From IMG/VR virus record IMGVR_UViG_3300021131_000003, positions 17,659-81,658 of that record: DNA of 64,000 nucleotides. One strand, written 5' to 3'. Both the position numbers and the translations under genes were made by a program. This stretch comes from a virus. Under the pieces are notes generated by a model that had not been told where the DNA came from, made no database searches, and saw only the letters and a program-made list of their open reading frames with translations. Of this stretch, positions 5,992-64,000 are shown piece by piece (position 1 is the stretch's first letter; every line of letters starts with the position of its first letter).

Positions 5992-7094
5992 TAGTTACCT
6001 GCCACAATTCCAGAACCAGAGAAGCAATCAATACTTAATGATACCGTTGTGCGTACAGGTATCATGTTCTCCGTAAAATCAGTGTGTTGAATACCCATAG
6101 TGGTAATCCACCCAACATAGCTCAAGCTGTCTAATGTAGGTCCAATTTGGATACCAACCAGGGTAGGCATCAAGAACCCAATGTTAGCTGTTTCTTTTCC
6201 TAATAGGTTTGTCCAACCACCATTTGCTTGACCACCGTTTAAAGTTTTAAATAGATACTCAAGGTCAGCCATGGTGCCCTGTGCCATAAGCTGTTGAATC
6301 TTATCGGCAGTTGTAATTTCATTTGACTGAATTGGGTAGGCGTTACCGTCGTAGTAACTGGTGAACTGGGAGTAGTTTACGCCCTTAGGGTCATTGCCTC
6401 CACCATATGCTTTGACGCAGGCAAAATCATTTACTCGGTCAAGTTGCAAGGTTAAAGATACAGTCTCTTGCCCAGGAAATGCTCCAGAGACAACCTTTAG
6501 AGAGTCTGCTGGGCTTGGGGTAATATCCATATTACGGGTAACGCTTGTGCTAATAGATGTAGGGTTCCACATAAATTGAAAACCCCAGTGGTTGCTCATT
6601 GAGCTAAGAACTGTTCCCGCATCAGTGTTTTTAGTCCCAGTATTTTTAGCAGCTGTAGCGCCAGCAGTAGTTACGTTACCGCTATCGTCAAAGGTACTAA
6701 CGTTATTAGCGCCTGAGTAATACCAGATACGACCTCGGCGCATACCATGGAACGCGTCGTAGTTGTTTGCCCCTACAAGCTCAGAATCCATCTGGCGTGG
6801 GCGAACAGGCAAGCTCCAATTATGCGGAGGAAGATTCCACTTGTAATCAGCAGTAGGCATTTTATTAATTTCAGCGCTTGTATCGGTGCTTATAGTTTTG
6901 GTGCTTACTGTAGGCTTCTGTAAATCTAAACTTAAGTAATCATCTAAGCGTAGACGGGTAGAGGTACTGTTAGCTGAGTAGTTAACAGCGGATACCGCTT
7001 GTTGATTAGCTAGCTGTAATTGGCGCTCAACTTGTATATCTGTAGTGGCGGTAGTTCCAATGAACCCGCCATCGTCTGCATAGTAACTAGCCAT
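5991..7094 (-). CDS. Tail tube initiator-like protein
   Basis: FQFMWNPTSI, FTENMIP.RTTV.LS motifs; lies between tape measure and LysM genes. Confidence 0.7.
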   Translation of the reverse strand: MASYYADDGGFIGTTATTDIQVERQLQLANQQAVSAVNYSANSTSTRLRLDDYLSLDLQKPTVSTKTISTDTSAEINKMPTADYKWNLPPHNWSLPVRPRQMDSELVGANNYDAFHGMRRGRIWYYSGANNVSTFDDSGNVTTAGATAAKNTGTKNTDAGTVLSSMSNHWGFQFMWNPTSISTSVTRNMDITPSPADSLKVVSGAFPGQETVSLTLQLDRVNDFACVKAYGGGNDPKGVNYSQFTSYYDGNAYPIQSNEITTADKIQQLMAQGTMADLEYLFKTLNGGQANGGWTNLLGKETANIGFLMPTLVGIQIGPTLDSLSYVGWITTMGIQHTDFTENMIPVRTTVSLSIDCFSGSGIVAGN

Positions 7095-9364
7095 TATTTA
7101 GTTGCCACCCATTTACTAGTCTGTAGGTCTTTAACTGCTTGTTGAATAGCCGCTTGTATCTTTTTAGGGTCTCCGCCCATTACATTCATATTGAAGGTAA
7201 CACCGCCGTAATTGACTGTGCTTCCTCCTCCACCGCCCAAAAGCTGTGAAGCATAACCAGCAGCATCACCACCCAAAATACTGGACAGGGTTGTTCCCTT
7301 AGCAATTGAGCCTGTCTTTAAGTATTGCTGGAACGCTGCGTTAAAGGCTTTTCCATTAGTACCGAAGAAAGAAGTAATAGCTGAAGCCGTTCCAGCGTCT
7401 TCAGTAATGCTTGAGTGCGTTTTAAAAGTTCCCCATGGGGAAGCGCCAACTATTGCTCTAAAGTCTTCTGCTGAAACGTTTCCAGCAGATAATGCTCCCA
7501 AAATTTCATTATAACGAGAGTCACCCTTAAGGGTTTTAATTGTAGCTTCCACTCCTTGTTTATAAGAAGTATAGTTTTTAACTCCATCTTTATTATTGGT
7601 AAATCCTTCTGCCTTGCCCGCGTCAACTGCCCCTGGCATAGGTTGTGTGGTAGCTAATGGATTGAACTTAGCTTTAGTATTTTCTCCAGACATCCACATT
7701 AAAATATCTGCTATAGCACTTGGTGTAGCTTTATCACCTAAACCAGCTAGTAAGTCTTTAGCAAATACATCTCCACCACCAGCGCGTCCCCCTTTATACT
7801 TAAAGAGTTGACTAGTTATGTTGTTTGGAATGATGGTTCCATCTACCTTAGGAACAAATAGCTCAGGTCCCTTTTCACCAACCATATACATATTGGATGC
7901 CGCAGTAGGTCCGCCAGAAGCTTTACCTGATATACCAAGGAGAGCTGTAAGGAATTGGATTAGCTTGTCGCCCATACCGTTACCTGCAGCGCCTAAGGTT
8001 TGAAGTAGAGCAGCCATACTATTAAGACCAAGTACGCCCTGAGGGTTAATGTTGTTCTGTATGTTGCCCATATCAGTTAAGAAGTTCTTAGTTCCAGCAA
8101 ATGTTTTAGCTCCAGCTGGGGATGCAAGAATCAACCCCTGAGTAGCAACTGCATTGCCGCGGCTAAATGCCTGGACAGCCTCGGTGGTTAACCCAGCAGC
8201 TTTAGCGTTGGCAGCATTAATAGTTGTATCCGCGCCAGCAGCAGTCTGACGAGCTTTAAATACAAGACCGTTCTTAATCATGTTATAGACAAGTGGGTCT
8301 TGGCCAAATAGATTCTGAACCAAAGAGTCCATAGAGTTTCCTGGTTGGAAACCAATCAAGACTTCGCGCTCAGATGGCTTTCTTCCAGCGCCATAAGCTT
8401 GCCCGTAGTCTCTACAAATCTTTGTCCACAAGTCATCAATAATCTTATCTGGCGGCTTTAAGTTTCCATCCGCATCACGAATAGAGATACCAACACCGCG
8501 AAGCATGTTTACATTTCTGCCTTGTTGCATAGCACCGTATGCGCGCATAGCGCCTTCAGCGCCAATACCTGGGGTGAGGTTAGATACGTTAGCTACGCCT
8601 TGCGCAATACTTCCATTGAAGTTACCGCCAGCGCCCTGTAATAAGTTAGTTCCATTAAGTCCGTAGCTTTGAGCAGCAGCAATGGCATTGATAGCATCCA
8701 TCTTGTCATTTACAGAGCCTTGAAGACCCATCTTCATCATGGCGTCTTTTACATAGTTCTGTTGATTGTCAAGAACCATAGCTGAAGGCAGAGTTGCGCC
8801 AGGGGTTGTTGGTCCCATAGCAACCTTGTTGCCCATCATGGCGTTAGCTCTTACATAAAGAAGCTGAGCTTGAACCATGTCAGATGTAGCGTTAGCTCCC
8901 ATAAGAGCTGTGCCCATTCCGTAAAGAGCCGCCGCTCCAGGGTTCTGACTTACATAATCAGATAGGTTACGGAACATGCCTCCGCCGCCAGAGGAGCCAG
9001 ATGAGCTTCCGCTTATTCCGCCACCACTAAAGGCTCCGCCACCTATTACAGTAGGCGCAGGTCCTGCAGCAATTTGATTTTGTCCACCGCCATATACAGC
9101 AGGGGCATTGTGAAAGACTGGGTCTGGAGCTACGTGATTTCCATAAACTCCGCCACCGCCGTAGCCACCGCCGTAGCCGCCAACAAAACCGCCTTGAGTT
9201 TGAACAAGCCTCTGATTACCAGACTGCATTGTTTGAACAAGGCTTGTCCACTCTTGTCTTAGAAGGGAGGTTTCTTGGCGCATACTAGAGATGCTGCTCT
9301 TGATATCAGAGACTACAAAGCTAGTACGAGACGGTAAGTTCATACCGCTCTTGCTATCAGCCAT
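7094..9364 (-). CDS. Tape measure protein, possible C-terminal lysozyme-like domain
   Basis: Gly/Ala-rich; ASGGP...YMVGEKGPELFVP..DGTIIPN motif; EN...FNPLATT..SPWGT segment; follows the chaperone. Confidence 0.88.
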   Translation of the reverse strand: MADSKSGMNLPSRTSFVVSDIKSSISSMRQETSLLRQEWTSLVQTMQSGNQRLVQTQGGFVGGYGGGYGGGGVYGNHVAPDPVFHNAPAVYGGGQNQIAAGPAPTVIGGGAFSGGGISGSSSGSSGGGGMFRNLSDYVSQNPGAAALYGMGTALMGANATSDMVQAQLLYVRANAMMGNKVAMGPTTPGATLPSAMVLDNQQNYVKDAMMKMGLQGSVNDKMDAINAIAAAQSYGLNGTNLLQGAGGNFNGSIAQGVANVSNLTPGIGAEGAMRAYGAMQQGRNVNMLRGVGISIRDADGNLKPPDKIIDDLWTKICRDYGQAYGAGRKPSEREVLIGFQPGNSMDSLVQNLFGQDPLVYNMIKNGLVFKARQTAAGADTTINAANAKAAGLTTEAVQAFSRGNAVATQGLILASPAGAKTFAGTKNFLTDMGNIQNNINPQGVLGLNSMAALLQTLGAAGNGMGDKLIQFLTALLGISGKASGGPTAASNMYMVGEKGPELFVPKVDGTIIPNNITSQLFKYKGGRAGGGDVFAKDLLAGLGDKATPSAIADILMWMSGENTKAKFNPLATTQPMPGAVDAGKAEGFTNNKDGVKNYTSYKQGVEATIKTLKGDSRYNEILGALSAGNVSAEDFRAIVGASPWGTFKTHSSITEDAGTASAITSFFGTNGKAFNAAFQQYLKTGSIAKGTTLSSILGGDAAGYASQLLGGGGGSTVNYGGVTFNMNVMGGDPKKIQAAIQQAVKDLQTSKWVATK

Positions 9365-16808: not shown

Positions 16809-18149
16809 CTAAGACAATCCGTATAAAGCAAAGTGAGAATATTGAACAAAGTTACCAGCTGAAGGGTTTAATGTTATAGTTGTTATAGGAGAAAAACTAG
16901 TCCACATAGATGAACTTAAAGCAACTGTTTCATTATTTGTGCTTACTGAAGAGTTGTTTGAATCAAAACCAGATATAGACTCAGCCACTTTCCATTTATA
17001 AGGGCTAGTGTAATCTAAAATATCTGCAATAGTTATTCCAAACATATTAGCGTACGAACCGTTGCCCGCCCCGTTTAGCCCAATGTGGGTGTACGTGGCA
17101 GCATAGTTATTAGTTGCGCTGACAGCAGACCCGTTAGCATACATACCATGCCAGCTATAGTTAGCTGACGCGTCTCCGTTATAATTTAAGTTTACATCTT
17201 GAGAGTTTGTAGAGCTTGTTAAACAAAAAGCTCTAAGTTGTAAATGTGTATAGTTTTGTGGAATGTTATAAAATGTAATGCTAGATACTGGCGTTGATAC
17301 AACAGTAGTCGCTATGCTGGAAAAACTATTAGCTCCAGTTATTGGGTTAGACACAGACGACGTTCCAGTGCCTTGAGAGTTAATTGCTTTAGCTGTAAAG
17401 GTAGTTGCTGACCCTAAAGTTAATGGCGCAACAATAGGACTTGCTGACCCGTATGATGTGTTGTTATTGTTATCAGTAACCGCATAAACAGCAGCTTGGT
17501 CACCTGCTGTAGGTGTAAACGCAATCGAAGCAAAGCCGCCCTGGTCTGTAACAGATGTTAATGTGGGGGCTGCGGGAGGCAACGAAGCGTATTGTTCTGT
17601 AACACCATATAACGTAAACACACTATATTGAACGTATGTAGTAGTTAAGTTAGCTGTATCAGGAGTTAGAGTAATAGAGGTTATAGGCGCAGTGCTTAAA
17701 TAGGAAGACGCAGCTGTCAAGATAATGTTTGCAACAGCATTGTTTTCTGCAGTACCGTCTACAATTAATTGTTTGTAGTTTCCAGACGTGTAATTTGGAA
17801 TATACATTTCAGTATTGCTAAAAATGTTAGCACTACTTCCAGCATTAGGTATATAAACAATTCCGTTATTTCCAGCGTTATACGCATTTGCAACTCCTTG
17901 CGTAATGTTTACCGTTGTAGGGGAGTTTGTAGCTTCCCACATAATAGTTCTTGAAGGAAAAAGCGTAGTGGTATTTCCATTAAAAGTAACTTGAGTATCT
18001 GAGAATGTTCCGCCACCAGTTAAAGAGTCTCTTGCAGATACCTTTAATACTAAGTCAGTGTAGGTCTGAGGTATGTTGCTAAACGTTACGCTAGACACTC
18101 CGCCAGCTCCCACTGTGTAAGTGGCGATTGGCTGCATAAAGATAGTCAT
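16809..18149 (-). CDS. Paralogous domain protein: two copies joined by an Fn3-like domain
   Basis: FSNIPQTYTDL...FTLYG; Fn3-like PPAAPTL...FTAKAIN; FYNIPQNYTHLQ...FALYG. Confidence 0.8.
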   Translation of the reverse strand: MTIFMQPIATYTVGAGGVSSVTFSNIPQTYTDLVLKVSARDSLTGGGTFSDTQVTFNGNTTTLFPSRTIMWEATNSPTTVNITQGVANAYNAGNNGIVYIPNAGSSANIFSNTEMYIPNYTSGNYKQLIVDGTAENNAVANIILTAASSYLSTAPITSITLTPDTANLTTTYVQYSVFTLYGVTEQYASLPPAAPTLTSVTDQGGFASIAFTPTAGDQAAVYAVTDNNNNTSYGSASPIVAPLTLGSATTFTAKAINSQGTGTSSVSNPITGANSFSSIATTVVSTPVSSITFYNIPQNYTHLQLRAFCLTSSTNSQDVNLNYNGDASANYSWHGMYANGSAVSATNNYAATYTHIGLNGAGNGSYANMFGITIADILDYTSPYKWKVAESISGFDSNNSSVSTNNETVALSSSMWTSFSPITTITLNPSAGNFVQYSHFALYGLS

Positions 18150-42683: not shown

Positions 42684-42927
42684 TGCACCTTATTTTGATG
42701 GGAGCCAGGTCTGCGCTCAAGTAGACCCAGAGCTCTTCTTTCCCGAAGTAGATTCATCTAAACACGATATAAAACGAGCGCTTGCTATATGCAGCGACTG
42801 TGAGTTTAAGGAACCGTGTTTAGAGTTTGCCCTCACTCACGAGAACGAATACATATACGGTATATGGGGCGGTACAACCCCAAAGCAGCGTAGGTTAATA
42901 AAACAAGCTAGAAGAAGGCGTAGATAG
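42646..42927 (+). CDS. whiB: WhiB-family Fe-S transcription factor
   Basis: C..VDPELFFP...CxxC-x5-C, GIWGG, basic tail RRRRR. ATG at 42646 with GGAG SD. Confidence 0.93.
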   Translation: MLGTSGKLTGGTNAPYFDGSQVCAQVDPELFFPEVDSSKHDIKRALAICSDCEFKEPCLEFALTHENEYIYGIWGGTTPKQRRLIKQARRRRR

Positions 42928-58916: not shown

Positions 58917-59144
58917 TTACTTAGCTGCAAGAGCTTTCTTATACTCCTGGAAAGATACAAAAAGCTGATAGGTCAGGTCAGAGCGATTATCGTAGTGCTT
59001 CTCATCGAAGTGCCTAATCCAATCGGAAGCTGAGAAAGCTGCAGAGGCACAGCCATTATTAACATCATTCCAAGCTACCTTGGCAAAGCCTGCTTGGTCA
59101 CCGAGGTCATCAACCTGATTCCATAACCATGAAGTAAAGCGCAT
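58917..59144 (-). CDS. Small helical protein (YozE-like?), probably leaderless
   Basis: F..WL..Q....G..A; ATG 6 nt after CATAAT. Confidence 0.6.
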   Translation of the reverse strand: MRFTSWLWNQVDDLGDQAGFAKVAWNDVNNGCASAAFSASDWIRHFDEKHYDNRSDLTYQLFVSFQEYKKALAAK

Positions 59145-59150
59145 GCGAAA

Positions 59151-59186
59151 ATTATGGGGGTTACACCCGAATACGTCAGTGTAAAT
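59151..59186 (-). promoter_or_regulatory. Putative promoter ATTTAC-A-CTGACG-N17-CATAAT
   Basis: Recurrent motif with a recognisable -35. Confidence 0.65.
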
Positions 59187-59220
59187 GGGCAGTTTATCGT
59201 CTTGCCCAGGACAGCGCGGT

Positions 59221-59724
59221 TTACTTGATTTTGATTGTCTTTGGCTGGAGCTCCTCAGGAAGGTTGCGCTCCAACTTGATTGTCAAGATGCCGTCCGCCA
59301 TCTCAGCGGAAACGACCTCTAGATAGTCCGCCAGTGGGAAGGTCTGTGTGAAGTCCCGCTTAGCGATACCGTGATGGATGTAGTCCAACTCGCCCTCTGA
59401 CAAGAAGCTGTCAATGCCCTCGCCTGTAACTGTTAGAACATTGTTCTGGACTGTTACGTCGATATCCTTCTTGGTGAATCCCGCCAGAGCAAAGCGAATC
59501 TCATACTTATCCTTGCCCATAGAGATGATGTCGTATGGGGGATATTTGCTAATTGAGCTCCCGCTGAGAATCTCTTCGAAGAACTTGAACTGATTGCCAA
59601 AGCCCACGCCCCGAGTGATAAGGGTTGTAGTTAGGTTTGGAGTTGGAACCGTGTATGTGCTCTTGTGAGGCTCACTTGAATACGGGCCTACATGAGGATT
59701 GTATTGACTGATGCTTGAAGCCAT
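59221..59724 (-). CDS. hsp20: Small heat-shock protein (Hsp20/IbpA family)
   Basis: YPPYDI, ALAGF...IDV, YIHHGIAKRDF..TF.LA, A.M.DGIL.I.LER..PEE..PK.I.I. Confidence 0.95.
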   Translation of the reverse strand: MASSISQYNPHVGPYSSEPHKSTYTVPTPNLTTTLITRGVGFGNQFKFFEEILSGSSISKYPPYDIISMGKDKYEIRFALAGFTKKDIDVTVQNNVLTVTGEGIDSFLSEGELDYIHHGIAKRDFTQTFPLADYLEVVSAEMADGILTIKLERNLPEELQPKTIKIK

Positions 59725-59971
59725 AATTATCTCCTTAGACGATAACTAGTTAAATAGGACCCAATCGGCGTCCTGGATTAATTATAAACCGCCCCCGCGC
59801 CATATTCCATCGAAAAAGGCTACTGCCTGCCAATTCAAGGTGTTACCTGCATTTCTCACCTGGTGGCCTAATTGTCGACAAATCGACTTAACCCTCGGGG
59901 GGTGAGAAGTCTGAGAAAAGGCTGAGACCCAAACTCTCAGGATACTTTAAGGAAATAAGCGTGTGGAATAG

Positions 59972-60000
59972 TTGCGTGGGGTGGTGGGGTGGTATAGCGT
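59972..60000 (+). promoter_or_regulatory. Sigma-A-type early promoter TTGCGT-N17-TAGCGT
   Basis: Upstream of the first plus-strand gene; preceded by CTGAGA repeats. Confidence 0.55.
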
Positions 60001-60048
60001 ACGTGGTGTTGGGGCAGGGTGTCCCTACGATTAGGAAAGGCAAGGCAA

Positions 60049-60330
60049 ATGGAATTAAATCTATATGGTGCTATCGAGGAACAGTATAACAGCACCCCCG
60101 TCAATGTCATTGTGCGCGACAGTATCTATGACCAAGTATCCCTCATCATCACGCAGGGTTCAGATAGCGTTAATCTCTTCCTCTCTCTCGAACAACTCGA
60201 ACAGGTGTTCGGCAAGATTAACAACTACCTCCAAGAGCGTGAGGATAAGAAGGCTCACGCCGAGGCGGTCGCTCTCGCTCAATTCGACGCACAACGCGAC
60301 GACCAAGCAGAAAGTATCTCCCTTGCGTAG
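60049..60330 (+). CDS. Early hypothetical protein
   Basis: AAGG SD before MELNLY. Confidence 0.7.
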   Translation: MELNLYGAIEEQYNSTPVNVIVRDSIYDQVSLIITQGSDSVNLFLSLEQLEQVFGKINNYLQEREDKKAHAEAVALAQFDAQRDDQAESISLA

Positions 60331-60481
60331 CCCGACTTACTATCGAATCCGTCTAGGCGTTAGGGTAGCCTTCTGGGCTACCCTAGCGGTCGGGCTCGTC
60401 TATCTCGTCGGTCATATAAATTGGGTGGGTAATCACTATTGCTGGGGCACTATTGCCAAGTGTTATGGATTGGAGGGGTAA
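60323..60481 (+). CDS. Small membrane protein (TTG start)
   Basis: RSPTYYRIR..VRVAFWATLAVGLVYLVG TM segment; stop overlaps the next ATG. Confidence 0.65.
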   Translation: MRSPTYYRIRLGVRVAFWATLAVGLVYLVGHINWVGNHYCWGTIAKCYGLEG

Positions 60482-60681
60482 TGCTATCCGAGAACGGTAT
60501 TCAGAAATTACTAGGTGTAAAGGTACACAACGCGCTAGAAGGTAGCGTGAAGGTAGATGAACAGGCTATGAATCGAACGGCAACCTGTAAGCGTTGCGGT
60601 TCACAACTAACTAGTTTCTTTAATGAGGACGAAGACCGCTACGGCTGGTCTGCGTGGAAAGGGGATAAGACCTGTGAGTAA
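60481..60681 (+). CDS. Small Cys-containing protein
   Basis: GGAGG SD; CKRCG. Confidence 0.65.
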   Translation: MLSENGIQKLLGVKVHNALEGSVKVDEQAMNRTATCKRCGSQLTSFFNEDEDRYGWSAWKGDKTCE

Positions 60682-60781
60682 CACAATGACTATTACTCGC
60701 ACGGTTACCACGACGGTAACCGTCAATAAGCCTAAGCCTGTCGAGGTTTGGGAACAACTAGAATTACCGCTAGAGTGGTAA
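60674..60781 (+). CDS. Micro-protein ending QLELPLEW (35 aa, not in ORF track)
   Basis: GTG or ATG start, overlaps the upstream gene; open frame fills the gap. Confidence 0.55.
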   Translation: MSNTMTITRTVTTTVTVNKPKPVEVWEQLELPLEW

Positions 60782-60816
60782 TACACAGATTAGGAGAAGC
60801 AGGGGAGGTGATATAA

Positions 60817-61119
60817 ATGGCATACACAGACCTAGAAGCATTAAAAGAACGTCTGAAGGCAGGGCAATCAAAGCCACGTCCGAAGCGTACTTATCGTAAG
60901 CGGGTAACCCTATCGCCGAGCAAGAAGGTAGAAATCGTAACAATGTTACGTGAAGCCTGCGAGTTCGCAGATGAGGCTCTTATCGAGCGCGAAGCAAAAA
61001 TGTACCAAGCCTACAAGATGGGCTTATCGGGTGCTGATATAGCGGAAGCGATGGGAATTAACCAAAGCGCGCTAGCAAAGCGACTCGCACGTGTTAAGGC
61101 AAAACTTAACGCCAACTAA
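60817..61119 (+). CDS. Helix-turn-helix DNA-binding protein
   Basis: GGAGGTGA SD; GLSGADIAEAMGINQSALAKRL. Confidence 0.85.
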   Translation: MAYTDLEALKERLKAGQSKPRPKRTYRKRVTLSPSKKVEIVTMLREACEFADEALIEREAKMYQAYKMGLSGADIAEAMGINQSALAKRLARVKAKLNAN

Positions 61120-61198
61120 TAGGATTCTCGTGTCCTAATCCACGAGAATGGCTATCCCGTCCGCGCCCGAGTGGCTGCAAAGATACGGTAATTGCCAC

Positions 61199-61228
61199 GA
61201 GCCCCAAGTGTCCCTGCGCTTGGGGCTC
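61199..61228 (+). terminator. GC-rich hairpin before T-shaped element 1
   Basis: GAGCCCCAAG/CTTGGGGCTC. Confidence 0.65.
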
Positions 61229-61235
61229 ACTCATT

Positions 61236-61327
61236 TGTTTGTGTTGGGCTATATACGGCAATCAGCAGCTTGCTGTGATTGCAAAAATATGCCTCGCATA
61301 TTTTTCGTATATAGCCCAACACAAACA
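61236..61327. repeat. T-shaped inverted-repeat element, copy 1
   Basis: Perfect 22-bp arms enclosing two internal hairpins. Confidence 0.9.
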
Positions 61328-61330
61328 TTC

Positions 61331-61440
61331 CTGAGAGTTGGCTGAGAGTATGCCGAGAGATTGCTGAGAGAAAACACACAGGATATTCACAGGAAGATAG
61401 GCTTAGCGAGAGTTGCATTCTGAGAGAGTGAGAGTAGGCT
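61331..61440 (+). promoter_or_regulatory. CTGAGAG array (11-bp period) plus promoter TTGCAT-N16-TAGGCT
   Basis: Copies at 61331, 61342, 61353, 61364 and 61420. Confidence 0.6.
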
Positions 61441-61484
61441 AGGCCTGTCCTAGCATCCGCTAGGCTTTACGAAAGGTTAGGCTC

Positions 61485-62489
61485 GTGAACCAAAACACGA
61501 TTCACAAGTCAGAAGTGGATTCGGGCGAAGTATCGTTCGCAATCCGCGAAGACTTAAATCCAACGTGGCATTCGTTCGCTAATGCGACATTCGACCACGA
61601 CGCACAAGTCACAACAGCAGAAATGCTCAAGTCTGCAGAACTCTCTGATTGGAACGTTCGCTTAGAACCTGCAATCTACCCTGCCGATTACCGTCCTGTA
61701 TCTGAGGCGTTCAATGTAATCCGTACCAATCCGCGCGATGGTGGCGTGGATGTCCTTGCAACTGTAGGCAAGAAGTATCGCGCCTATCAGAACGAACAAC
61801 TGTTCGCATTCGGCGATAACCTCCTAGATGGTGGCGGTCGCTGGGATTCTGCAGGTTCTGTAAAGGATGGACGCGTCGCGTTCGGTTCTCTCATTCTTGA
61901 GCGTGAACTAGTTCTCGACCCACAGGGCGCAAGTGACGCCACACGTCACTATCTCCTAGTGACTACCTCACACGATGGCTCTAGTTCTATTAAGGCTCTC
62001 GTTACACCTGTTCGCGTTCTCTGCCAAAACTCTCTGAACGTGGCAATTCGTGGCGCAAAGCAATCGTTCTCCGTTCGCCACACTACTGGCACAGATGGAC
62101 GCTTGCAGGAGGCTCGCAAGGTTCTAGGGATTACTCACCAGTATCTCGACGAATTCGATACTCTCGCTCAAGAACTATTCCAGAGTGAAATCACCAATGC
62201 CGAATTCGATAAGATTGTCGCACAGGTTTATCCTGCTCCCGACGCTACCGCAAAGGCTGCCGTTACACGTTACACCGAGAAGGTCGACCTCATTCGCGGG
62301 CTCTACCTCAACTCTCCTACTCAGACCAATATCGTGGGAACTAAGTGGGGCGCGCTCAATGCCCTAACCGAACACCTCGATTACTTCCGCAAGGGTGACG
62401 CTACCAATTTAGCTGCTGCCGCTAGCGGATTCGAGGCAGGCGTCCTCAATCAGAAGGCGCGAATCCTTGAGATTGTGCAAGCCGCCTAA
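61485..62489 (+). CDS. DUF932 (TIGR03299-like) protein
   Basis: VG..Y...QNE.LF, AGS.KDGR, YLL..TSHDGS, TPVRV.CQNSL, VRHT, GT.WGA.NA..E..D. Confidence 0.9.
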   Translation: MNQNTIHKSEVDSGEVSFAIREDLNPTWHSFANATFDHDAQVTTAEMLKSAELSDWNVRLEPAIYPADYRPVSEAFNVIRTNPRDGGVDVLATVGKKYRAYQNEQLFAFGDNLLDGGGRWDSAGSVKDGRVAFGSLILERELVLDPQGASDATRHYLLVTTSHDGSSSIKALVTPVRVLCQNSLNVAIRGAKQSFSVRHTTGTDGRLQEARKVLGITHQYLDEFDTLAQELFQSEITNAEFDKIVAQVYPAPDATAKAAVTRYTEKVDLIRGLYLNSPTQTNIVGTKWGALNALTEHLDYFRKGDATNLAAAASGFEAGVLNQKARILEIVQAA

Positions 62490-62506
62490 GGTTAGCCAAT
62501 AAGTTC

Positions 62507-62532
62507 AGCCCCCCGACTTCCCTCGGGGGGCT
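62507..62532 (+). terminator. GC-rich hairpin before T-shaped element 2
   Basis: AGCCCCCCGA/TCGGGGGGCT. Confidence 0.75.
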
Positions 62533-62538
62533 TGACTT

Positions 62539-62633
62539 GTTTGTGTTGGGGCATATAGCGGTAAATTACAGCCTGCTGAATTTACAAAAAATAACGTAAG
62601 TTATTTTTTCGCTGTATATGCCCCAACACAAAC
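62539..62633. repeat. T-shaped inverted-repeat element, copy 2
   Basis: GTTTGTGTTGGGGCATATA/TATATGCCCCAACACAAAC arms enclosing two internal hairpins. Confidence 0.9.
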
Positions 62634-62739
62634 TCTCAGGAGATTCACAGGTTCTCAGGAAACTCTAAGCATTCTCAGGAAACTCTAAGCAAAAAGAGAG
62701 CATTGTGGCTTGACCGAGAGATAAGAGAGGGCATAGAGT
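62633..62739 (+). promoter_or_regulatory. CTCAGG array (including a 20-bp tandem duplication) plus promoter TTGACC-N18-TAGAGT
   Basis: TTCTCAGGAAACTCTAAGCA twice (62652-62691); -35 at 62710, -10 at 62734. Confidence 0.65.
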
Positions 62740-62788
62740 ACGCGTACAAGGTAATCATTAGGGATTACCACTAAGAGAAAGCACGATA

Positions 62789-63298
62789 ATGGAATACACG
62801 CAACCCGCCCTCTTTTACACAGAGGAAGAAGTAGCCGCTAAGGTTACTGAAGCCCGTCTAACCGACGCGTTAGACCACGCACACCAAACGCAACGCGCAA
62901 AAGATAACACCAATTTTAATTGCGCTCTCGTTTTGGAGGAGGAACTCCGAAACGCAGTATCCGACGATAAGATTAGTGCCGAGGATGCTAACCAACTATT
63001 CGCCAATATCGCTGGACGTCTAGGGTGGCAAGCCTCCGTAGACTTCACCACCAAACTATGGACAGTAACCCTATCCTGCAATTACGACGAAATCGCCACC
63101 TTTGACGATATCGAAGCCGAGGATGAGGACGACGCCGTAGAAATCGTGCGCGATAACCTTAATCTATATGACGTATCCGCCACCGCTACCTTCGAGTATG
63201 AGGGTAGCCAATACACCTACGAAGTAACCTCAGTAGAACACGACTTGGGTGATTACTTTACCGATAACCTAGAGTTCGAGGCTCGTCGCCAAGGATAA
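62789..63298 (+). CDS. Acidic early hypothetical protein
   Basis: GAAAG SD; N-terminal QPALF. Confidence 0.75.
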   Translation: MEYTQPALFYTEEEVAAKVTEARLTDALDHAHQTQRAKDNTNFNCALVLEEELRNAVSDDKISAEDANQLFANIAGRLGWQASVDFTTKLWTVTLSCNYDEIATFDDIEAEDEDDAVEIVRDNLNLYDVSATATFEYEGSQYTYEVTSVEHDLGDYFTDNLEFEARRQG

Positions 63299-63406
63299 GG
63301 TTAGTGGGCTTGGCAGGGTAGTCGTGTACCCCTAACCCCTAACAATCGGATAGGCTTAGTGCCAAGTAGAGCCTATCCACCCCAACTACTAATAGAAAGT
63401 ACGACA

Positions 63407-63946
63407 ATGTCCACAACCGCAAGAGTTTTATTCGACCAAATCACGCAAGAAGTAGAGGACGGCAAGAAGTACGTCATCCACTACGACACCTCCGACCTAG
63501 AGGACGGCGGTAAGGGTATGGAAGTCCTAGAGGCTTTGCCACTAGACGCAGGTACTTTAGCCTTTGGTAACTACAAGGTGCGCGACGCGCTCCTAGTAGA
63601 AGCCAACAAGGATGAGGAGTTCGCCTTTGTCCTAGTCAATAAGATTATGACGCACGTTAAGCAGAAGTCTGATGATAACGCTATCGTGCAGAGTGATATC
63701 GAAGCAGTAGCCACCGCCAGCCATATTCTCGCTATGTGGGAGTTAATCGAGCCAGCCGTAGGTACTTTAGAAATCGCTAAGATGATTATTGACTCTAATG
63801 AGGTAGAAACACCTAACCTTCTTAAATCAACTATGCAGGTAATCACCGCAGGTACTATGTTTGACCGCGATATCTCCAAATTGCGCCAGCAGATGGTTCA
63901 GGATATCGGTCAGGAAATCCTAGATAACCTAGACGACGAGGAATAA
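63407..63946 (+). CDS. Acidic early hypothetical protein
   Basis: GAAAG SD before MSTTARV. Confidence 0.75.
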   Translation: MSTTARVLFDQITQEVEDGKKYVIHYDTSDLEDGGKGMEVLEALPLDAGTLAFGNYKVRDALLVEANKDEEFAFVLVNKIMTHVKQKSDDNAIVQSDIEAVATASHILAMWELIEPAVGTLEIAKMIIDSNEVETPNLLKSTMQVITAGTMFDRDISKLRQQMVQDIGQEILDNLDDEE

Positions 63947-63959
63947 TCCTAGCGTGAAC

Positions 63960-63983
63960 CGCTGGCGGGTTTCCCCGCCAGCG
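63960..63983 (+). terminator. GC-rich hairpin, followed by the probable start of T-element copy 3
   Basis: CGCTGGCGGG-TTTC-CCCGCCAGCG, then TTGTTTGTG at 63992-64000. Confidence 0.75.
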
Positions 63984-64000
63984 AGCGCAGATTGTTTGTG

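Follow-up and report, generated by a model that had tools for sequence, protein, structure and literature searches.

A family of perfect palindromes at putative cassette joints in the accessory gene array of uncultured freshwater myoviruses

Near one end of a 64,000-nucleotide stretch of viral DNA (positions 17,659 to 81,658 of the IMG/VR record IMGVR_UViG_3300021131_000003, hereinafter the window, which comprises the final 64 kb of an 81,658-bp viral contig with completeness rated at 86%), two T-shaped palindromic elements separate short gene units, and the beginning of a further arm is cut by the end of the contig. Comparison with related phages places these elements in a family of palindromes in which the conserved feature is not the T but a perfect stem whose base is fixed. 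Whole gene units appear to be gained and lost at the elements, and we give about an even chance to the reading that each is a joint between cassettes that works at the level of DNA, an exchange site for cores and cassettes, and not an RNA gene. The family is apparently undescribed: no description of the element was found in the literature, supplementary files being outside the coverage of that search. Nearly all genes of the window up to ~59.7 kb are on the minus strand, and from position 60065 to the end of the contig there is a short module transcribed in the opposite direction, which contains the following features:

61199..61228, plus strand: terminator-like GC hairpin (13 pairs, 8 of them G-C) closing the unit of a helix-turn-helix (HTH) gene, 7 nt before copy 1
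61236..61327, no strand assigned: copy 1, T-shaped palindromic joint, outer stem 61236-61257 / 61306-61327
61258-61282 and 61283-61305: hairpins A and B of copy 1, the junction being without an unpaired base
62507..62532, plus strand: terminator-like GC hairpin (10 pairs, 8 of them G-C) closing the DUF932 gene unit, 6 nt before copy 2
62539..62633, no strand assigned: copy 2, T-shaped palindromic joint, outer stem 62539-62560 / 62610-62633 with a 2-nt bulge
62561-62585 and 62586-62609: hairpins A' and B' of copy 2
63960..63983, plus strand: GC hairpin (10-bp stem, 4-nt loop) closing the cassette at 62789..63946
63992..64000, no strand assigned: first 7-9 nt of a third arm, truncated where the contig ends; only TTGTTTGTG is present

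An earlier reading made from the letters alone (the sequence-only reading) had described copy 1 as a pair of perfect 22-bp arms enclosing hairpins A and B, and this description holds in its coordinates, pairing and fold: the arms are 22 nt long, 100% complementary and spaced by 48 nt. In copy 2, which was said to have the same arms, the T fold and hairpins A' and B' stand, but the perfect arms comprise only 19 nt (62539-62557 / 62615-62633, 100% complementary), with 3 further pairs beyond the 2-nt bulge. The compensatory difference between the arms of the two copies (GGGCTATATA versus GGGGCATATA, mirrored on the other arm) is present as described, and all three sites follow a GC hairpin that ends a unit. 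The third site, starting at 63992, had been taken for another T; the arm start is there, but, because of synteny with three related phage stretches, L039, L050 and L021 (L numbers designate phage stretches that carry elements), it is probably the long array-closing form described below. When copies 1 and 2 were folded on both strands, the z-scores were -11.9, -8.6, -11.2 and -9.4 with RNA parameters and -14.0, -12.2, -11.2 and -11.7 with DNA parameters, and in every case none of 200 shuffled sequences was as stable. The arm motif occurs four times in the window compared with 0.5 expected (none of 100 shuffles gets to 4), and copies 1 and 2 are the window's sole long, perfect, spaced inverted repeats. 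The sequence-only reading had not recognised the element as a named family; in agreement, a search of positions 59000-64000 against Rfam produced four matches at E-values up to 10, none of which reached the gathering score. The best of these, between the minus strand of copy 1 and the plant microRNA model MIR827_2 (34.4 bits, where the gathering score is 67), is a match to a generic long hairpin.

The sequence-only reading had proposed a search of related phages for further copies, and these were found in 61 related phage stretches (17 in the viral collection and 44 in the metagenome collection) by a scan for two 12-nt arm motifs 55-85 nt apart; the same scan matched no stretch in 185,579 prokaryote species, each represented by one genome. 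After removal of duplicates, 89 distinct copies remained, 82 of standard length (76-95 nt) and 7 longer or odd. All elements have in common a 12-bp stem base, in which 10 of the 12 arm positions are invariant or very nearly so, in phages whose genes are only ~55-75% identical. Across the outer 18 bp of the standard copies, 1471 of the 1476 pairs are Watson-Crick and none is G.T; the five mismatches are confined to 2 copies, leaving the outer 18 bp perfect in 80 of the 82. Positions 1-12 are largely fixed by the search, and positions 13-18 are unconstrained; at the latter, all 252 cells of the first 42 copies were paired, with 22 different hexamers represented, compared with 44% for shuffled partners (maximum 56% in 2000) and 21-29% when the register was slid by 1-3. 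In these counts, including the shuffle and slid-register controls, pairs were taken from the ends of the element or from the junction, as MAFFT put gaps inside stems. Within the stem base, the arms covary, with T:A replaced by C:G at pair 8 in 20 of the 82 copies and the changes at pairs 9 and 12 affecting both sides every time. The perfect stem is 18-25 bp long in 78 of the 82 copies (mode 19-22).

The cores enclosed by these stems, ~40-55 nt long, fall into roughly a dozen mutually unrelated groups; in lineages other than that of the window, the same arms hold a single hairpin with an unpaired stretch, or a long imperfect stem. The sequence-only reading had regarded the three-way junction as the conserved feature, and this does not extend to the family, in which different cores are placed between the same arms. 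The tetranucleotide AGCT, often within TAGCT or AGCTTT, was observed in 28 of 42 cores (6.5 expected, maximum 14 in 1000 shuffles); it has no fixed position and related copies are not independent, so that no conclusion is drawn. Arrays of elements are closed by a long form, in which two CCCACCC-type repeats and then one or two hairpins lie between a 10-bp arm and its partner arm, and which always immediately precedes an AAA_5 + VWA gene pair (L026:9374-9482; L025:7263-7369; L021:9313-9428; L050:4847-4949; forms of ~140 nt in L022:13879-14019). At the starts of the arrays in L022, L023 and L026, there are lone arms with a GCCCACCC-type extension (for example, L022:8013-8022 and 8794-8803; L026:4667-4676), and in L022 two lone half-sites face each other across a 780-bp one-gene unit.

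The T core is limited to the lineage of the window, with 11 copies: two in the window, three in L021, three in L050, two in L039 and one in L051. No unpaired base was present at the junction in any of the 10 copies counted, copy 2 of the window being the eleventh, with the same fold. In these 10 copies, 67 of 70 pairs in helix A and 90 of 90 in helix B are Watson-Crick, a result that none of 2000 partner shuffles equalled, and several pair types occur at 5 positions in each helix. The proposition of the sequence-only reading that the structure is conserved while the sequence covaries is thus borne out within the T lineage, but not for the family as a whole, where the T itself is not kept. A covariance model built on the 11 T copies, a search suggested in the same reading, scores them at 75-98 bits on the sense strand and 56-73 bits on the antisense strand (98.2 and 69.1 bits for copy 1 on the plus and minus strands, 76.9 and 55.6 bits for copy 2), and other family members at 36-58 bits, with the strands nearly alike; across the whole genome of the window's phage (G000, comprising the window and L027), it recovered only the two known copies. 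One 102-nt member, L057:1568-1669, scores 63 bits and forms a different T, with two A/T-rich hairpins on a longer, interrupted stem.

Comparison of the arrays as strings of gene families (F numbers) indicates that the differences in gene content between relatives consist of whole units with elements at their borders; switching of gene content at these sites had been suggested as something to look for in the sequence-only reading. The DUF932 gene is present wherever the locus covers its slot, and the slot that follows it (slot 2) is occupied by F11, F16, F25 or a DUF3846 gene. The position of F16 varies: it precedes DUF932 in L010, L019 and L020 and follows it in L012, L023 and L007. The F3 unit is missing from L022 and L007. 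Between L010 and L019, colinear homology stops 12 nt into the element behind DUF932; L019 then carries an extra core, F25 and an element, and homology restarts 7-17 nt beyond that element. Element E88 of L023 and element E87 of L022 are 97% identical over 99 nt, with flanking genes at 68-72%, and L023 has an additional F3 unit between two like elements. In the T lineage, an extra unit consisting of an element and a gene for a 152/158-aa protein is found between DUF932 and the next genes in L050 and L021, and not in the window or L039. The L039 joint is a mosaic that combines the basal A stem of L050's left element with the B hairpin of L050's right element (96% vs 78%). Copy 1 of the window is also a mosaic, with an orthologous extension (89%) and B hairpin (91%) and a different type of A (64%, vs 80% to another element). 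These few cases suggest that the stem extension, hairpin A and hairpin B of the T elements are reassorted as parts.

With respect to the flanks, which were compared over the 80 standard copies with sufficient sequence, the usual order is terminator, element, operator-like motif, next gene. By a strict rule, a GC hairpin with a T-run abuts the element in 63 of the 80 copies, and most of the remaining 17 have one some 10-20 nt further upstream (by eye). Downstream, within 40 nt, 48 of the 80 copies are followed by a perfect TGTGGATAA, which we take to be the reverse complement of the DnaA-box consensus, always in gene direction; CTGAGAG-type repeats follow 14 copies, 5 of them also with the DnaA-type box, and 14 copies have none of the downstream motifs searched. 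The lineage of the window is of the CTGAGAG type, without a DnaA box after the elements: the one perfect box of G000 is distant from the array, and in G001 (L021) and G003 (L022) perfect boxes occur only within terminator stems. Since the hairpins lie upstream and the operator-like motif and promoter-like site downstream, the element appears, from these patterns, to occupy the gap between the terminator of one unit and the promoter region of the next. As side observations, the DnaA-type 9-mer forms part of a 12-mer, CCTGTGGATAA(C/G)T, at the same 48 of 80 copies, at the same distance and in the same direction (L026:5509-5530, 6728-6750, 7371-7395 and 8121-8150; like places in L023, L019, L010 and L012), and a terminator-like hairpin made of two inverted DnaA-box 9-mers lies upstream of the elements L021 13070-13158 and L022 10982-11071.

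Three features of the family argue for action of the element at the level of DNA and make the structured non-coding RNA offered by the sequence-only reading unlikely: the absence of wobble pairs from the outer stem, the occurrence of cores in both orientations, and the start of the element where the T-run of the terminator ends. Helices predicted in 71 upstream terminator regions contain 64 G.T in 826 pairs (7.7%), compared with 0 of 492 at positions 13-18 of the elements (Fisher p 7e-14), with the caveat that predicted pairs favour G.U extension and the element pairs are anchored at the ends. The cores of group j (L009:1095, L019:3474) and group k (L010:6758, L019:4731, L020:3399) are homologous, but run in opposite directions relative to the genes, in 6 of 6 pairs (scores of 45-63 inverted vs 12-24 direct; null maximum 33), and one of the inverted pairs lies inside a single genome. 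Among the alternatives listed in the sequence-only reading, a folded-DNA signal for recombination fits these data best. The elements are not themselves intrinsic terminators: the right arm is followed by ATTCC in copy 1 and by TCTCAGG in copy 2, with no T-run, and what a terminator scan picks out is in each case the distinct hairpin further upstream (61199-61228 and 62507-62532), not the element. Promoter readings of the arms or of hairpin B, made by eye, led to nothing.

Apart from the elements and their hairpins, the module at the end of the window includes:

60817-61119, plus strand: gene for a 100-aa protein matching sigma-70/extracytoplasmic function (ECF) region 4 only (Pfam E 4e-5, NCBIfam E 3e-5, both under the curated cut-offs)
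61331..61370, plus strand: four CTGAGAG-type heptamers with an exact 11-bp period (starts 61331, 61342, 61353, 61364), right after copy 1
61485..62489, plus strand: cassette gene between copies 1 and 2, DUF932/TIGR03299 (Pfam E 2e-47; NCBIfam E 1.1e-48)
62634..62691, plus strand: CTCTCAGG / TTCTCAGGAAACTCTAAGCA repeats behind copy 2, the copy-1 heptamer inverted, with tandem 20-mers at 62652-62691
62710..62739, plus strand: sigma-70-like promoter match downstream of copy 2 (TTGACC, 18 nt, TAGAGT; 9/12 consensus)
62789..63946, plus strand: next cassette, two family-less genes (169 aa at 62789-63298; 195 aa at 63359-63946)

In appearance, the heptamer series after copies 1 and 2 suggest operators or iterons arrayed along one helical face. 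Terminator-like hairpins precede both copies, and the promoter-like match is seen after copy 2 only; promoter-like matches in the region are no more frequent than in shuffles, and 62710..62739 is a consensus match only. DUF932 has no relative in the PDB by sequence and none by profile (best E 1.1), and a literature search turned up no described function for it, TIGR03299 being the sole further name. A 23-kb contig encodes a DUF932 protein that is 95% identical (P0001). Its homologues, with 45-46% identity, were noticed in Streptomyces phage records (for example, PP358745.1 at 1194-2171), 1.2-2.6 kb from the start of the record and at two places per record, which suggests that they sit in the terminal repeats of those phages. 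The two genes at 62789..63946 have weak relatives (29-33% identity) in the same slot of L021, L050 and L039, and the 195-aa gene has none in the viral contigs searched. Beyond DUF932, a DUF3846 gene present in some relatives, and the weak HTH match, the arrays encode small proteins with no Pfam or NCBIfam family match and terminate ahead of the AAA_5 + VWA gene pair. A reading frame resembling a region-4-like HTH protein was also seen, by eye, inside a G001 cassette.

The phage is a myovirus, with sheath, baseplate, portal and T4-type large terminase genes and with genes for PolA, DnaB-like, DnaC/IstB-like and DnaG-like proteins, RecA and an SNF2 helicase; one virion protein is ~45% identical to its counterparts in T4-like cyanophages. 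Complete relatives are 95-98 kb in size and carry 3-6 copies of the element each, all in one array. WhiB-family genes are present in all 5 phage genomes examined, whereas among 14 control genomes only Corynebacterium was positive; G000 has two family matches (G000:C1:2845-3069, minus strand, and window 42706-42894, plus strand), and its four relatives have one or two apiece. The presence of WhiB genes in all five genomes supports an actinobacterial host, and this group of ~95 kb myoviruses probably consists of actinophages. In the same 5 genomes (4 of them at least 99% complete), no tyrosine recombinase (PF00589; 14 of 14 control genomes positive), serine recombinase (PF00239) or IS200-type transposase (PF01797) was detected, the positive controls for the latter two being detected.

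The 10 public sequencing runs found to contain this phage included no RNA run. DNA contigs from four of the public runs, matched to the window, often end at the elements, and no mini-circle joint between neighbouring elements was found among them. One contig joins 61250 to 61313 via 31 other letters that form a simple hairpin; this joint was given no weight because, at 85% likeness, a related element elsewhere could produce such joints. Two further cases are equally ambiguous: a joint between opposite strands (62623 to 63383) and a loose end in which a B-type hairpin comes straight after the left arm.

In the scheme that we favour, the 76-95 bp perfect palindrome would lie between the intrinsic terminator of one early unit and the operator or promoter of the next, in an accessory array transcribed oppositely to the rest of the genome. 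When the DNA becomes single-stranded during replication or recombination, or under negative supercoiling, the element would fold back, forming in the lineage of the window a fully paired T. The invariant 12-bp stem base would then serve as the common sequence where cores and the adjoining cassettes are exchanged, deleted, inserted or flipped. The likely agents would be the phage's own recombination and replication machinery, through the RecA-like protein or by template switching at a stalled hairpin, rather than a dedicated integrase. As a known mechanism, template switching of this kind would also account for the perfect arms and the flipped cores. What the sequences show is the family itself, its strictly Watson-Crick stems, its constant position and the way in which differences in cassettes and cores coincide with the arms; folding in vivo, the mechanism of exchange and the reading of the stem base by a protein are inferred components of this scheme.

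Several considerations weigh against this interpretation. Any conserved sequence would attract crossovers, and exchange at the elements may be a by-product of another function. The near-invariance of the 12-bp base exceeds what homology-driven exchange needs, which suggests a protein reader; and in the lineages without the T, the 15-20 unpaired nucleotides of the core would hinder extrusion of a cruciform from duplex DNA. The arrays are largely syntenic, the independent exchange events are few and the blastn ends are approximate; the chimeric joint is a single case, with a weak A-hairpin signal (84% vs 80% overall). The sense strand folds somewhat better overall: it is the more stable one in 52 copies and the antisense strand in 16, the two being equal in 14 (mean difference -1.65 kcal/mol). 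A comparable shift (-1.18) is seen in the terminator regions, and the sense strand of the cores is rich in T and G. Given this bias and the single orientation of the T copies relative to the genes (11 of 11), an RNA or sense-strand contribution of the cores is possible. The differing treatment of the two sets of pairs in the wobble comparison belongs here as well.

The strongest rival explanation, which we consider rather unlikely all the same, is that the element is a boundary or regulatory site marked by a protein, which would bind the stem base, as duplex or as extruded junction, to insulate or shut off early units, with exchange as a side effect. Such a protein would fit the (almost) invariant arm positions, the retention of the lone GCCCACCC-extended arms at the array starts, the operator-like motifs downstream of many copies, both the DnaA-box-like 9-mer and the CTGAGAG type, and the small gene with the region-4-like HTH just upstream of copy 1 (below the curated cut-offs). 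However, a duplex binder leaves unexplained the complementarity of the variable positions 13-18 and beyond; the lengths of the elements vary continuously from 76 to 95 nt, so that the half-sites have no fixed helical phase; and among the array proteins only the weak HTH matches a DNA-binding family. A more adventurous reading, and an unlikely one, holds that genes are swapped as in an integron but without the integrase: an early protein would read the palindromes as folded DNA, and cutting or template switching at the stem base and the junction would move cassettes and reassort the extension, A and B. DUF932, kept in every array, is the obvious candidate for the reader.

The remaining alternatives rank lower than the protein-marked boundary. 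We assign a low probability to an RNA-level role, in which the ~20-bp helix in read-through transcripts would serve for RNase III-type processing, or else as a stabilising hairpin, and so keep neighbouring messages apart, as RNase III-type sites do between the early genes of phage T7. The length of the stems, close to two helical turns, their location between cistrons, the better folding of the sense strand and the uniform orientation of the T copies all agree with such a role, and the orientation of the core would be irrelevant to a site that consists of the stem only. Against it, the outer stem lacks the wobble pairs found in neighbouring terminator regions, most elements start right behind the T-run of a terminator and the promoter-like site lies downstream, no Rfam family is reached at the gathering score, and RNase III substrates would not be expected to conserve the particular sequence of a plain helix. 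It is very doubtful that the element is a signal for replication priming or helicase loading, where a folded strand with a DnaA box would recruit DnaA and the phage DnaB, DnaC and DnaG, on the model of plasmid single-strand initiation sites, which combine a hairpin with a DnaA box. The box behind 48 of the 80 copies in gene direction, the DnaB-like, DnaC/IstB-like and DnaG-like proteins encoded by the phage and the A/T-rich unpaired stretch in many cores are in line with this role, but the lineage of the window does without the box, cores occur in both orientations, and 3-6 copies ~1 kb apart, each before a promoter, suit the control of transcription better. Most improbable is a selfish element, resembling miniature inverted-repeat transposable elements (MITEs) or repetitive extragenic palindromes (REPs), that has spread into terminator-proximal gaps: the elements do have terminal inverted repeats, are small and intergenic, and carry similar cores at several slots of one genome (those of group c in L022, L023 and L007, and the T cores in the lineage of the window), but the cores are unrelated between groups, the copies are confined to one array and to syntenic slots, the prokaryote genomes searched yielded no match, neither an IS200/REP-associated tyrosine transposase (RAYT)-type enzyme nor a tyrosine or serine recombinase was found in the 5 genomes, and no clear target-site duplication was seen in the flanks by eye. 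The DNA-entry signal also raised in the sequence-only reading was dismissed on two indirect grounds: the arrays lie at different coordinates in two relatives with terminal repeats, and the large terminase is T4-like.

Among known systems, the closest in role are the PeSL (promoter-early stem-loop) cassettes of T4-type phages, described as terminator/promoter composites that bound accessory genes and as sites of modular shuffling without a known recombinase (PMC2839356, PMC4122927). PeSLs are intergenic composites that couple a terminator stem-loop to the next promoter (PMC2839356), an arrangement that the elements, with the terminator-like hairpins before them, may share. PeSLs and elements alike flank small accessory genes lacking an assigned function, and in both systems close relatives differ by indels and replacements that stop at these sites; for PeSLs, the recombination invoked is that of the phage itself, no dedicated recombinase being known (PMC2839356). 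The differences lie in construction: the stem-loop of a PeSL is the terminator itself and conservation resides in the promoter, and a figure legend has the stems drawn with G-T pairs (PMC2839356), whereas the elements are separate 76-95 nt perfect palindromes, with an invariant 12-bp base and a swappable core, located between terminator and operator or promoter, and contain no such pairs in the outer stem. Mini-circles are shown for PeSLs in that account (PMC2839356). By analogy, the element reads as PeSL-like in role and attC-like in logic.

Integron attC sites occur in arrays of cassettes and have imperfect stems with extrahelical bases and conserved RYYYAAC...GTTRRRY ends. The likeness consists in a series of single-gene units that all point the same way and each have a palindromic site behind them; in conserved ends, stem pairing that is independent of sequence and a centre that varies in length and may branch; and in exchange at the sites. 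Identity with attC was rejected, however: no PF00589 tyrosine recombinase (integrase) was found in the 5 genomes, the stems are perfect and without extrahelical bases, the arms (GTTGGG(C/G)...(G/C)CCCAAC) present core-like heptamers in the reverse of the attC order, and the cassettes carry their own terminators and promoter-like sites. The T form also resembles the T-shaped inverted terminal repeats (ITRs) of adeno-associated virus (AAV), in which a long conserved stem is closed by two small internal palindromes, and the occurrence of cores in both orientations in the wider family recalls flip and flop. Unlike ITRs, the elements are internal, several per genome and 0.6-1.4 kb apart, in a tailed phage with double-stranded DNA, and all 11 T copies have one orientation; a search for HUH enzymes, limited to PF01797, was negative in the 5 genomes. 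The resemblance to parvovirus terminal repeats is, by this comparison, one of geometry only. REP sequences, bacterial interspersed mosaic elements (BIMEs) and MITE-type palindromes of bacteria are likewise short, lie downstream of genes and can fold as DNA or RNA, but the elements were not found in the cellular genomes searched, occur as 3-6 copies in one phage array with unrelated cores, and are accompanied by no RAYT-type gene.

Accessory early genes are where phages keep functions of host takeover and anti-defence, and how such genes move between lytic phages is poorly understood. In an abundant group of uncultured freshwater phages, the element provides a sharply defined marker with which exchangeable units are easily searched for. 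Should folded DNA be the form in which it is read, it would constitute a second answer, independent of a recombinase or relying on a new one, to the problem that integrons solve via attC, and its T-shaped members would form a natural set of perfect three-way DNA junctions, the three arms of which are reassorted.

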